This document shows positions 59,099-62,593 of a DNA stretch of 64,000 bases, piece after piece. This DNA is from Flavobacteriaceae bacterium (GTDB taxonomy: Bacteria; Bacteroidota; Bacteroidia; Flavobacteriales; Flavobacteriaceae). Under the pieces are notes generated by a model, which was given only the letters and a program-made list of their open reading frames with translations, ran no database searches and was not told where the DNA came from. The stretch lies in the NCBI GenBank assembly GCA_018402205.1, contig JAGYIX010000005.1, positions 55,202 to 119,201 of the forward strand, written 5' to 3'. Numbering within the stretch: the first letter of the stretch is position 1; every line of letters starts with the position of its first letter. The position numbers and the translations under genes are program-made.

Positions 59099-59917
59099 AT
59101 GGAATCTTTTTTACTCTTTTTTGAACAGATGCCGGTTTGGATGAAAGCCGCCTGGATCTTCTTTGTTCTAGGCATTTTCTGGATCGCAGAAGGGTATTAT
59201 GCTCAAATCAATTTCAGCTACAAAAAATGGCGTCATGCACGAGTTAATGGCTCGCTGCTTTTCATGGTTATGCTTATTAATGTGGCATTCGGAGCACTCA
59301 CAGCACTGCTTTATCAATGGATCAATCAAAGTAATTTTGGGCTTTTAAACTTGATCGAGTGGCCTTTATGGGCCGAGCTCATAATTGCCCTAATCTTTCT
59401 TGATTTTATCGCCCAATACTTTGTGCACTTTTTACTGCATAAAGTACCCGCCCTTTGGAGGCTACACCTGGTGCATCACAGCGATAAGCACGTCGACGTC
59501 ACTACTGGAACACGACACCACCCACTTGATTTTCTGCTCAGAGAGACCTTCGCATTAATAGCCATAGCCCTTACAGGCATGCCGGTCTCTTTTTATTTGT
59601 TTTATCGCATCTTGAGTGTGGTATTCACCTATTTCACGCACGCAAATATCGCCCTTCCAGTGGGGATTGATAAAGCCATTTCTTATGTGTTTGTTACTCC
59701 GAATATGCACAAGTTTCATCACCACAACGAGCTACCTTGGACCGACTCTAACTTCGGCAATATGCTGTCTATTTGGGATCGAATCTTTGGAACCTTTGTC
59801 TACGGAGATCTAACTAAAGTAGTGTATGGTGTAGATATCGCAGATCACAAAGACGATCAAAACCTTTGGGTGCAGCTTGGGGTGCCCTTTGATCGATCTA
59901 TCAAATCTAAGCGTTAA
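59099..59917 (+). CDS. fatty acid hydroxylase superfamily (sterol desaturase family) membrane protein
   Basis: His boxes HFLLHKVPALWRLHLVHH, HH (TRHHP) and HKFHHH, with SIWDRIFGTF. Confidence 0.8.
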   Translation: MESFLLFFEQMPVWMKAAWIFFVLGIFWIAEGYYAQINFSYKKWRHARVNGSLLFMVMLINVAFGALTALLYQWINQSNFGLLNLIEWPLWAELIIALIFLDFIAQYFVHFLLHKVPALWRLHLVHHSDKHVDVTTGTRHHPLDFLLRETFALIAIALTGMPVSFYLFYRILSVVFTYFTHANIALPVGIDKAISYVFVTPNMHKFHHHNELPWTDSNFGNMLSIWDRIFGTFVYGDLTKVVYGVDIADHKDDQNLWVQLGVPFDRSIKSKR

Positions 59918-61371
59918 CTCAGCGCTTGTAAAGGCCACAACAGCGGCATTAGATAGTACACCCATAAAGTAATGAGCAAAATAGAAAACAGGTTTAGCCC
60001 AAGCCCGGCGCGAATCATATCTGACATGTTAACATAGCCTGAGCCAAAAACCACGGCATTTGGCGGAGTAGCCACTGGCAACATAAATGCACAAGATGCC
60101 GCCAGCGTTGCGCTAATCATGAAGGTATACGGATGCACTCCCATAGCAGCCGCCAACGGTGCCAAAACAGGCAAAATCATCGCTGTAGTGGCTAAGTTCG
60201 AAGTGATTTCAGTCAAGAAATTAATAGCGGCCACTAGCACCAAAGTCATTAACAGTAGTGGAAGAAACTGCAAAGTGACTAGCTGCTCGGCAAACCATTG
60301 GGCAAGGCCGGTTTCTTTAAAGCCTTGTGCTATGGCTAATCCGCCACCAAAAAGCAACAGAATACCCCAAGGCACCCTTTTTGAATCGTCCCAGTGAAGA
60401 ATAGCCTCCCCTTTAGAAGACCCAGGCAGCACAAAAAGAATAATTCCTGAGGCCAAGGCGATAATGGTGTCGTCTATAGCTGGTAAAATAGGGGCAAGCA
60501 AAAAAGATCTGCTCATCCAGGCGATAGCCGTAAGTACAAACACTAGTAATACTTTTTTCTCTGAAGCATTCATTTGCCCTAAAGCCGCGCGCTGGCGACT
60601 TATCTCTTCAACTCCTCCGGCAAAATCATCGGCCTTAAGCGTGATCGCCATTCGAGTGAGGTAAAGCCAGCATACGACCAAAAGCACTACCGATAGCGGA
60701 AACGCAAGTAACATCCAGTCTAAAAAGCCAATCTCTACCCCATACAGCTCTTTAACAATTCCCGCCAAAACCAGATTGGGCGGGGTTCCGATTAGGGTGG
60801 CCATTCCGCCAATAGAGGCGCTATAGGCGATGGAAAGCATAAGCATCTTTCCAAACTGGGTGTGCTCGTTTTCTGGGGTTTCTGGGTGATCTCTATATTG
60901 GGCAATAATTGCCAGGCCTATGGGAAGCATCATTACCGAGGTGGCTGTATTAGATATCCACATCGACAAAAAAGCAGTGGCCACCATAAATCCCAGCACA
61001 ATAAGTCGCATTCGGGTTCCAATAAGCGCAATAATGGTTAGTGCAATACGTCGGTGTAAATTGACCTTCTCGATGGCTATGGCCAGCAGAAATCCGCCGA
61101 GATATAAAAAAACATATTTATGCCCATAAGCCACGGTAGTCGTGGTCAAATCAAGAGCTCCGGTAAGCGGAAAAAGCACCATGGGTAATAGCGCGCTAAC
61201 GGCAATCGGAACGGCCTCGGTTACCCACCATGTACCTATCCAAAGCGCAACAGCAAGGGCGGCAATAGCATCGGACGAAAGCCCCTTAGGAGAGAATCCG
61301 AAATAAACCACTGCAAAAAAAAGCGGACCCAGTACCAAGCCGATATTGGCCGCAGAAAAGCGACTACGCAT
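59914..61371 (-). CDS. DASS/SLC13 family anion:sodium symporter
   Basis: Multi-TM protein with the TWWVTEAVPIAVSALLPMVLFPLTG N-terminal hairpin motif and the repeat ATPPNAVVFGSG. Start moved to ATG 61371 (8-nt overlap with the upstream gene). Confidence 0.8.
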   Translation of the reverse strand: MRSRFSAANIGLVLGPLFFAVVYFGFSPKGLSSDAIAALAVALWIGTWWVTEAVPIAVSALLPMVLFPLTGALDLTTTTVAYGHKYVFLYLGGFLLAIAIEKVNLHRRIALTIIALIGTRMRLIVLGFMVATAFLSMWISNTATSVMMLPIGLAIIAQYRDHPETPENEHTQFGKMLMLSIAYSASIGGMATLIGTPPNLVLAGIVKELYGVEIGFLDWMLLAFPLSVVLLVVCWLYLTRMAITLKADDFAGGVEEISRQRAALGQMNASEKKVLLVFVLTAIAWMSRSFLLAPILPAIDDTIIALASGIILFVLPGSSKGEAILHWDDSKRVPWGILLLFGGGLAIAQGFKETGLAQWFAEQLVTLQFLPLLLMTLVLVAAINFLTEITSNLATTAMILPVLAPLAAAMGVHPYTFMISATLAASCAFMLPVATPPNAVVFGSGYVNMSDMIRAGLGLNLFSILLITLWVYYLMPLLWPLQALS

Positions 61372-62593
61372 CGGCAAGGGCCCATTTGGTGGCTAGGCCC
61401 GAGAGAGCGCTCAAGCCTACTAAAAGGGTAAATGGTAAGCCCATTGCCACGAAGAACGCTGAAGCCCACACGTACAAACCAATGAGCAACGCGATACGCA
61501 AGGCCTCAAAAACTAAAGCCCAACGAGAGCCATCCATGAGCGAAGAATAACCCAAAACCATCAAAAAAATCAGCGCTCCTGAATAAACTCTGTGAATAGT
61601 ACTCAAGTCTGAAAAGAGTGCGAAAAAGTAAAACAACAAGCTTATAGCTAGTACAAACTGAACGAAGACCACCACCTTGCGCAGCAAGGTGCTCTTCGGA
61701 TCATACTTTTCATAGGCATACACATCTTCAATGATGGGTCGCTCAAAACGATTAGCTACATCGGCTGGGCGCCAACCTGTGGGCATAAACCAAATACGCA
61801 ACTTGTCTATAAAACGCCTAGCATGCCAAGCATCAAAGGCAAGGTTATAGGCGTGTTGAAAATTGATCCATAAAGGGTTATAGGTTTCTGCAGGTTTCAG
61901 CACTCCATAGCGGGGAGGCACCTCGTCTAATTCTTCTTGAAAAGTTCCAAAAAGACGATCCCAGACAGAGAAGATTTGTCCTAGATTTTTGTCTATATAC
62001 TGCTGATTGATCGCATGATGAACCCGATGCTGAGAAGGGGTCACCAAGATGTATTCAATAAAGCCCAGCTTTCCGATATGCTGGGTGTGGTACCAAAATT
62101 GCCCGAAAAGATGCAGCGGTGCTAACACTGCGATTACCGAATACGGAACGCCCAATAAAGCGGCTGGTAATAACAAAATAGCAGTATATCCGACTACGTT
62201 AGAGATCGACTGTCTAAGCGCGCAGGCCAAGTTGAAGTCTTCGCTCGAGTGGTGAATCACGTGCTGATTCCAAAATATATTCACATGGTGACTCAGGCGA
62301 TGGTTCCAATAACCGGCAAAGTCAATCACCACAAAGGCGATAGCCCAAGTTAACCATGATCCTGAAACCTCTGTGACCGCCAAGCGAGATACCAAAAACG
62401 GATAACTCACTAGCACAAGCGCTAAACCAAGACTGTCTTTGAGTACATTGGTGACTCCACTGCTCAAACTGCTCAAGGTATCAAATAGCCTGTATTTCTG
62501 TTGCTTCGCATAGTGACCGTAGGCAATTTCGATCAACACCAAGACCATAAAGGCTGGAATAGCATAAAGCAAAGCGTTAGCGTAAGCATTCAT
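61364..62593 (-). CDS. fatty acid hydroxylase superfamily monooxygenase resembling alkylglycerol monooxygenase (AGMO/TMEM195) over its full length
   Basis: [39 protein letters not shown] and PSQHRVHH...[12 protein letters not shown], plus a multi-TM C-terminal extension of about 120 aa that ordinary bacterial sterol-desaturase-family proteins lack. Confidence 0.65.
   Translation of the reverse strand: [409 protein letters not shown]

Follow-up and report, generated by a model that had tools for sequence, protein, structure and literature searches.

We analysed a 64,000-nucleotide stretch of contig JAGYIX010000005.1 from a Flavobacteriaceae bacterium (hereafter the window), with attention to a 409-residue open reading frame (ORF) at 61364..62593 on the minus strand that encodes a putative membrane di-iron oxygenase. 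We conclude that, as judged from its sequence, this protein is a genuine full-length member of the alkylglycerol monooxygenase (AGMO, TMEM195) branch of the membrane di-iron fatty-acid-hydroxylase superfamily and is not a generic sterol-desaturase-like protein. The gene is a real, divergent member of a known family, and a role in ether-lipid catabolism is plausible for it. Two aspects seem to be new: the subclade to which the protein is assigned differs from the animal enzyme precisely where the cofactor is contacted, and the gene sits in what looks like a lineage-specific operon with a DASS-type transporter, functional coupling to which is not supported.

The 409-residue protein is homologous to animal AGMO over its full length

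A first-pass annotation of the window, made from the nucleotide letters, had described the protein as a full-length bacterial look-alike of human AGMO. The ORFs, coordinates and motifs given there are present as described, including FWYHTQH (residues 166–172), PSQHRVHH (186–193), WFMPTGWRP (268–276) and the His-box core strings (98–129 and 207–218). For the comparison with the animal enzyme, a human AGMO sequence served solely as a search query with which real database proteins were retrieved; the best of these was gibbon AGMO (P0121, 445 residues, 98% identical to the query), and the human sequence strings quoted in the annotation match this protein. BLASTP aligned the window protein with P0121 at 35% identity over 367 residues with 8 gaps (E 2e-63). 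The alignment is colinear (query 11–374, subject 43–404) and extends from the first transmembrane (TM) helix, across the His boxes and the linker, as far as the C-terminal tail. It is because similarity spans the first TM helix, the linker and the C-terminal domain, and is not confined to the His boxes, that we set the protein apart from generic sterol-desaturase-like proteins.

Membership of the superfamily follows from a match to Pfam FA_hydroxylase (PF04116) at residues 83–217 (E 6e-29; 101.6 bits against a gathering cut-off of 31) together with three His boxes that supply eight motif histidines. Box 1 (H98-x3-H102; 62285..62302, minus strand) falls in an ungapped part of the alignment to primate AGMO, and the residue after it, H103, corresponds to human Glu137, while box 2 (H111-x2-H114-H115; 62249..62263, minus strand) and box 3 (H189-x2-H192-H193; 62015..62029, minus strand) are invariant alignment columns. 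H169 (62087..62089, minus strand), the equivalent of human His201, the ninth essential histidine, is His in 109 of 109 representatives.

The multi-TM tail had been likened to that of the human enzyme, and this likeness held. The Pfam model of the AGMO C terminus, AGMP_C (PF24858), gave a match to the tail that is colinear and below threshold (E 0.15; 12.6 bits against a cut-off of 28.3), and we replaced it with a profile–profile comparison of tails only. HHalign of the Bacteroidota tails alone against the animal tails returned a probability of 91.7% (E 7.9e-7, 74 columns), and the tail residues D354, E363 and R366 are kept as the counterparts of human D384, E393 and R396. The C-terminal membrane domain (residues 303–407; 61373..61687, minus strand), which we consider homologous to that of animal AGMO, consists of four helices predicted in an AlphaFold model at 303–325, 332–353, 358–384 and 388–407, in agreement with hydropathy. 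In total, about nine membrane helices, the four of the tail included, are predicted from hydropathy and the model, and nine have likewise been predicted for human AGMO. The model is confident throughout (mean predicted local distance difference test score (pLDDT) 94, predicted template modelling score (pTM) 0.90). No relative in the PDB was found by phmmer sequence or profile search, and the best Foldseek match to the pLDDT-94 model had an E value of only 0.28; therefore, structure was of no use for assigning function.

We also mapped residues defined by mutagenesis of human AGMO (Watschinger et al. 2012, PMC3304488) onto the BLASTP alignment with P0121. At 20 of the 23 mapped positions the residue is conserved; those kept, in human numbering, include the eight motif histidines, His201, D125, E152, D153, Q162, Q197, E212, D233, N235, W243, D244, D384 and R396. 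Besides the eight histidines, six of seven residues essential in the human enzyme are retained (Q128, H169, D201, N203, W211 and D212 of the window protein), the seventh, Y236, being Leu204, a state found in 1 of 109 representatives.

Taken as a whole, the window protein shares with animal AGMO (EC 1.14.16.5) colinear homology, the eight-histidine motif with His201, the Q162/D233/N235/W243/D244 set, about nine predicted TM helices and a homologous C-terminal domain with D384, E393 and R396. It differs in having His for Glu137, Leu for Y236 and Val for Y338, in six positions adjacent to the His boxes that are fixed differently in its Bacteroidota subclade, in falling short of the Pfam AGMP_C threshold, and in being a bacterial protein of putative activity, its gene operonic with a DASS transporter. 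In contrast, OlsE-type FA_hydroxylase or "sterol desaturase family" proteins, and with them a 272-residue paralogue encoded nearby in the window, share the PF04116 His-box core and lack both the linker and the C-terminal four-helix domain, such that similarity extends over about 147 residues. The NCBIfam OlsE model scored the 409-residue protein at 61 bits against a cut-off of 475, a similarity limited to the core.

The window protein belongs to a Bacteroidota subclade that departs from animal AGMO at the cofactor position

A HMMER search of 1.84 billion cluster representatives (50% identity clusters) returned 12770 relatives at E<=1e-3, of which 1277 reached E<=1e-30. The best 150, for the most part full-length (400–450 residues), share 32–45% identity with the window protein. 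Compared with primate AGMO, the top full-length representatives reach 35–43% identity, which makes them as close to it as to the window protein, and AGMO-type proteins therefore constitute one large, mainly bacterial family. Scanning GTDB, with one genome per species, gave at least 600 matches; the best 80 of these come first from Flavobacteriaceae, Saprospiraceae, Chitinophagaceae and Cytophagales (45–64% identity) and then from Pseudomonas, Rhodanobacter, Frateuria, SAR86 and Cellvibrionales (36–45%).

We delineated subclades from neighbour-joining distance trees, which carry no support values, and from residue signatures. On these trees, the window protein lies in a 50-member Bacteroidota clade; metazoan AGMO, with which a grouping had been envisaged, lies in another part of the family beside bacterial sequences of the Glu137 type. 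We conclude that the window protein is, by these sequence criteria, in the AGMO family but outside the branch most like the animal enzyme. The bacterial branch that resembles animal AGMO more closely than the Bacteroidota subclade does is a Proteobacteria-type one (Pseudomonas, Rhodanobacter, SAR86, Comamonadaceae, including fusions to YhhN discussed below). Its members share the core and linker with the window protein at 36–45% identity, but they keep the animal-type signature (mostly Glu137, with A143, T158, Y236 and Y338) and are most often fused or adjacent to YhhN.

The signatures of the two branches differ around the His boxes. In the first box the Bacteroidota clade reads HRxxH-x-xNxFWNxHxIHH, whereas Proteobacteria-type and animal sequences read HRxGHExNxLWAxH. 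The Bacteroidota clade has fixed N49, N109, F120, C124, H161 and Y168 (window numbering) in place of human S82, A143, Y154, T158, N193 and V/I 200, and at position 338 it mostly carries Trp (Val in the window protein), whereas the other branch and animals carry Tyr. Position 137 is hypervariable in the Bacteroidota clade (H, K, S, T, V, E, Q, R or I), whereas among Proteobacteria-type sequences it is Glu in 11 of 14 gammaproteobacterial loci from GTDB and in 65 of 80 metagenome loci, the latter taken from matches ranked by similarity to animal AGMO for diversity.

In human AGMO, Glu137 adjoins the second histidine and sets the Michaelis constant (Km) and affinity for tetrahydrobiopterin, and the AGMO literature describes it as unique to AGMO within the superfamily (PMC3304488, PMC3617469). 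The window protein has His103 in its place and so lacks this hallmark of the tetrahydrobiopterin-dependent enzyme. The first-pass annotation had correctly flagged His for Glu after the first His box as a caveat to pterin dependence, and with the position hypervariable across the subclade such dependence finds no support here. Because Glu137 is replaced by His at a position that is unconstrained in the subclade, we consider a Glu137-type pterin contact unlikely in the window protein and would expect another electron donor or another binding mode.

Linkage to YhhN points to ether lipids as probable substrates of the bacterial family

We propose that the window protein could cleave lyso ether glycerolipids, a reading that we favour at roughly even chances. 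In this scheme, two irons held by the His boxes would activate O2, and the substrate, a lyso ether glycerolipid (for example a 1-O-alkylglycerol or lyso-plasmanyl phospholipid), would be hydroxylated at the alkyl carbon that adjoins its ether oxygen; the resulting hemiacetal would collapse, releasing a fatty aldehyde and leaving the glycerol head group. The outcome would be degradation or detoxification of ether lipids from eukaryotic material, with electrons probably supplied by another donor, or by a pterin bound in another mode, in place of the Glu137-type contact. We base the assignment on homology and on the repeated pairing of AGMO-like genes with YhhN lysoplasmalogenase-family proteins, through which the ether-lipid role suggested at the outset gains independent, if indirect, support from elsewhere in the family.

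YhhN proteins are proven lysoplasmalogenases that cleave the vinyl-ether bond of lysoplasmalogens, as demonstrated for mammalian TMEM86B and Mycobacterium tuberculosis Rv1401 (PMC3137066, PMC9052158). We compared the neighbourhoods of 80 AGMO-like loci from GTDB and of the 80 metagenome loci (locus handles below carry the prefix L). In Flavobacterium collinsii, F. defluvii and Flavobacterium sp. Arc3 (L034:10001-11957, L037 and L045), a YhhN gene lies downstream on the same strand with gaps of -1 to 9 bp, and the three AGMO-like proteins, at 48–51% identity to that of the window, belong to its Bacteroidota clade. In Rhodanobacter sp. KK11 (L079:9168-11287), the YhhN gene is upstream on the same strand and overlaps the AGMO-like gene by 4 nucleotides. 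YhhN occurs on the same strand in 10 of the 80 metagenome loci: as a separate gene beside or overlapping the AGMO-like ORF in L088, L093, L105, L106 and L107, which brings adjacency to nine loci from several lineages, and as part of a single ORF with it in L132:50-1846, L152:7932-9788, L155:2922-4952, L156:3269-5062 and L157:1608-3479. The fused ORFs encode about 570–680 residues, with YhhN (PF07947) matched at E 1e-39 to 1e-46. A representative fusion from the family search, P0290 (595 residues), has both domains in common with 120 of its 120 best relatives (among them P0401–P0519), which come from Polaromonas, Variovorax, Ramlibacter and other Burkholderiales; the fusion is common in Comamonadaceae. 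Such proteins are labelled "lysoplasmalogenase family protein" by NCBI and "alkylglycerol monooxygenase" by the Joint Genome Institute (JGI), each label naming one half, and we found no description of the fusion in the literature searched. Because the YhhN-linked loci range from 33% to 69% GC and include both gene orders, several independent linkage events are indicated. We regard the fusions and adjacencies as Rosetta-stone evidence that the bacterial family probably acts on ether glycerolipids.

The same pairing would also fit a two-step etherase, in which the AGMO-like protein acts like PEDS1/CarF and desaturates the alkyl ether, giving a vinyl ether that the YhhN hydrolase then cleaves. 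Di-iron His-box enzymes shift easily between hydroxylation and desaturation, and it is this versatility, with the tight fusion or adjacency of the two activities, that makes such a division of labour conceivable. The majority of AGMO-like genes, the window's included, are nevertheless without a YhhN gene nearby, and animal AGMO needs no hydrolase for ether cleavage (PMC3617469), so that we consider the two-step route very improbable.

Other multidomain members were found among the representatives. P0281 joins an AGMO-like domain to a phospholipase/carboxylesterase domain, which could be a source of the lyso substrate that AGMO requires, and P0287 joins one to an SRPBCC (Polyketide_cyc2) lipid-binding domain; further cases are P0295 and P0350, with two tandem FA_hydroxylase domains and with an AGMO-like domain joined to beta-lactamase-like and Golvesin_C domains, respectively. 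In L062 and L066, the AGMO-like gene is directly downstream of genes read by eye as fadA-fadB.

Several observations weigh against direct ether-lipid cleavage by the window protein. Within its Bacteroidota subclade, the YhhN link is limited to one genus (3 of about 50 loci), and no YhhN, lipase or aldehyde dehydrogenase gene adjoins the gene in the window and its close relatives. Other same-strand partners are diverse (creatininase-family, glycosyltransferase and secA genes). The six residues fixed in the subclade near the His boxes would fit a change of substrate or reductant, and three mutagenesis-sensitive positions have changed (E137 to His103, Y236 to Leu204 and Y338 to Val308). Finally, no bacterial member of the family is known to cleave ether lipids, and PRUB680, the single one whose function has been tested, is a prodigiosin cyclase.

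The changed residues give substance to a different explanation, namely that an oxygenase of the AGMO fold has drifted in Bacteroidota to another membrane-lipid substrate and modifies lipids without ether cleavage, for example by hydroxylating or desaturating acyl or alkyl chains of the cell's own amino-lipids, sulfonolipids or glycolipids. The fixed substitutions beside the His boxes and the lack of constraint at position 137 would fit such drift, as would the rare L204 and V308 at residues whose mutation cripples human AGMO (PMC3304488). So would the company the genes keep: in Flavobacteriaceae the gene stands beside genes read by eye as psd and cdsA, or beside an overlapping glycosyltransferase-like gene, and a second FA-hydroxylase, with a weak OlsE-like match, is encoded near the window gene. 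Psd and cdsA are on the opposite strand, however, and the arrangement is family-level synteny only; moreover, Flavobacterium members of the very same subclade are operonic with YhhN, and the C-terminal domain with its D/E/R triad is shared with the animal enzyme. We hold this alternative to be somewhat doubtful, though it deserves serious consideration.

PRUB680 of Pseudoalteromonas rubra, reportedly an "AGMO-like enzyme" of the same superfamily branch that cyclises prodigiosin, raises the prospect of a tailoring oxygenase of secondary metabolism. It is the sole bacterial AGMO-like enzyme with a tested function, which lends that prospect some weight. The substrate of PRUB680 is a pigment, and the window shows no evident pathway for one, nor was any biosynthetic cluster seen among the window genes scanned; the window gene is instead of a kind that occurs singly, among ordinary chromosomal genes, in hundreds of species. 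A tailoring role thus seems to us highly improbable, and cleavage of ether lipids remains the reading that we prefer.

Implications for a possible bacterial ether-lipid catabolism

The novelty of the gene is less than the first-pass annotation had implied. JGI already labels these proteins "alkylglycerol monooxygenase" ("AGMO"), and a 2026 metagenome paper, in whose words AGMO "is not known to be functional in bacteria", counts 239 metagenome-assembled genomes (MAGs) carrying such genes. The window gene is one of thousands of auto-annotated homologues.

What is distinctive is the subclade, a natural experiment on the cofactor site in which the glutamate that sets pterin affinity in animals is missing. 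We suggest, tentatively, that the Bacteroidota subclade may comprise prokaryotic ether-lipid monooxygenases that dispense with the Glu137-type tetrahydrobiopterin contact and use either another reductant or a bacterial pterin bound differently. If so, marine Bacteroidota would be able to break down alkylglycerol ether lipids, in which animal and planktonic material is rich, and, together with the AGMO-like/lysoplasmalogenase fusions of Comamonadaceae, this would amount to a widespread bacterial module of ether-lipid catabolism. From the repeated lysoplasmalogenase fusion we derive the testable hypothesis of a bacterial pathway in which both kinds of ether lipid, alkyl and alkenyl, are degraded; no paper on it was found in the literature searched.

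Animal AGMO is labile and, to our knowledge, has never been purified and is without a solved structure. The enzyme could become tractable through bacterial homologues for which confident folds are predicted in silico, and these could clarify how a pterin or another donor feeds electrons to the di-iron centre. We see the main value of the window gene as an entry point to such bacterial models and to a bacterial pathway of ether-lipid catabolism.

The transporter and dehydratase neighbours are confined to one lineage

The 409-residue gene is directly upstream, on the same strand, of a gene for a DASS/SLC13-type Na+-coupled anion symporter (59914..61371, minus strand; 485 residues from an ATG at 61371, 487 from an upstream TTG at 61377). 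The family of this neighbour had been named correctly at the outset: it scored 316.4 bits with TIGR00785 (cut-off 198.6) and 269 bits with PF00939 (Na_sulph_symp; cut-off 27, E 1e-79), and its best solved relatives are SLC13A2 (E 1e-85), A3, A5, A1 and VcINDY (E 2e-62). The stop codon of the oxygenase gene and the start codon of the DASS gene share the 8-nucleotide overlap ATGCGTAG (61364..61371, minus strand), which would be 14 nucleotides were the TTG used. The overlap, as first reported, is real and is likewise called in L001–L005 and L085, relatives with 77–94% identity, so that co-expression with DASS is likely in the window's lineage.

From this overlap, and from a pterin-4a-carbinolamine-dehydratase-like ORF (56659-56970, minus strand) 4.4 kb from the oxygenase gene, the first-pass annotation had drawn a possible coupling of the oxygenase to anion import or export and a possible link to pterin recycling. 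Stated in full, the protein would be a tetrahydropterin-dependent AGMO orthologue working with the DASS symporter and the dehydratase. Homology over the full length, the overlap kept in the 77–94% identical relatives and the nearby gene with a Pfam Pterin_4a-domain match (68.8 bits) all favour this proposal. Conservation tells otherwise. DASS, the 272-residue hydroxylase and a pair of DDAH-like genes accompany the AGMO-like gene only in L001–L005 and L085. Amidase and dehydratase genes are adjacent in L001–L005; in L085 the amidase gene is displaced by an insertion, and no dehydratase gene is present within the stretch fetched. Across the remaining 79 GTDB loci and all 80 metagenome loci, none of these genes (DASS, 272-residue hydroxylase, DDAH-like pair, amidase or dehydratase) lies beside the AGMO-like gene, so the co-occurrence of DASS and dehydratase that had been proposed as a check does not extend beyond the window's lineage, and co-localisation of oxygenase and DASS is not conserved across the family.

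The dehydratase itself has been borne out in part. A Pterin_4a-domain gene does lie at the stated distance, but it is on the opposite strand to the oxygenase gene, the amidase and 272-residue hydroxylase genes stand between, and its product is under all five NCBIfam equivalog cut-offs; because the Pfam threshold is passed and the equivalog cut-offs are not reached, we regard it as a divergent COG2154 member. A scan of about 40 window ORFs revealed no gene of pterin biosynthesis. With Glu137 replaced by His at a hypervariable position as well, we judge a pterin-dependent orthologue coupled to the symporter and dehydratase unlikely. We conclude that the DASS pairing is a local operon arrangement of one lineage and not part of the family's mechanism: the general reading of an oxygenase coupled to anion transport fails because a DASS neighbour is restricted to relatives with 77% identity or more. 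Neither the transporter link nor the dehydratase link of this locus generalises.

Three candidate partners were considered and rejected. A universal conserved neighbour was not borne out, as genes within four positions (74 GTDB loci) and tight same-strand partners (160 loci) amount to lineage-level synteny only. A candidate fatty-aldehyde dehydrogenase partner was an aldehyde dehydrogenase gene next to the Chitinophagaceae genes, confirmed only for its Aldedh domain; it lies on the opposite strand among genes read by eye as hydroxyproline-catabolism-like. A pterin link via the dehydratase was discarded, there being no dehydratase homologue near AGMO-like genes outside the window's lineage.

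Among Flavobacteriaceae, two recurrent neighbours were seen one gene downstream. A creatininase-family gene follows the AGMO-like gene by 9–27 bp in L008, L012, L014 and L015, and in L016, L017 and L019 the AGMO-like gene overlaps a gene that by eye resembles a glycosyltransferase. The closest genome match to the window, L005 (78% identity, full synteny), is GTDB contig CAXPJI010000036.1, labelled as a MAG of "Euzebya sp."; its 21-kb stretch has 41% GC and the gene order of the window (DDAH-like, AGMO-like, DASS, 272-residue hydroxylase), and because of these two features the contig is probably mis-binned.

Other features of the locus

The DASS gene converges with the gene for the 272-residue paralogue (59099..59917, plus strand), and their stop codons overlap (59914-59917), leaving no intergenic space for terminators. 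The paralogue had been described as a tail-less family member, which is accurate: it is an FA_hydroxylase (PF04116, E 5e-27) that matches the 409-residue protein only over the His-box core (32% over 147 residues, 70 bits) and primate AGMO only in the His boxes, with matches of 62–70 bits, that to the 409-residue protein included. NCBIfam gave it a weak full-length OlsE-like match (91 bits, cut-off 475). An 85% identical copy is present in L005, and the gene is also present in L085.

Upstream on the plus strand is a PvdQ-like penicillin-amidase gene (56981..59062; an N-terminal-nucleophile (Ntn) hydrolase of 693 residues), which the 272-residue OlsE-like hydroxylase gene follows after 36 bp (pair at 56981-59917). 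The two may form an operon acting on N-acylated lipids; in L085, the insertion noted above lies between them. The dehydratase-like ORF is 10 bp from the divergent amidase start and has an 8-nucleotide overlap with the end of a TrkA-domain gene.

Farther away, at 44393-51133, genes for a PhyH-family dioxygenase, a short-chain dehydrogenase/reductase (SDR) and CutC stand in a row, followed by cytochrome c, AMP-binding and thiolase genes. The AMP-binding protein is acetoacetyl-CoA-synthetase-like, and these lipid and acyl-CoA genes are without a link to the oxygenase.

On the other side, divergent from the oxygenase gene, are two tandem genes of the DDAH/amidinotransferase superfamily (62670-64000, plus strand). 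The first, at 62670..63587, gave a weak match to PF02274, and PF19420 was matched by the DDAH-like orthologues in L001–L004 and L085. The pair is syntenic with the AGMO-like gene in all relatives of at least 77% identity, which we read as synteny within the lineage only.

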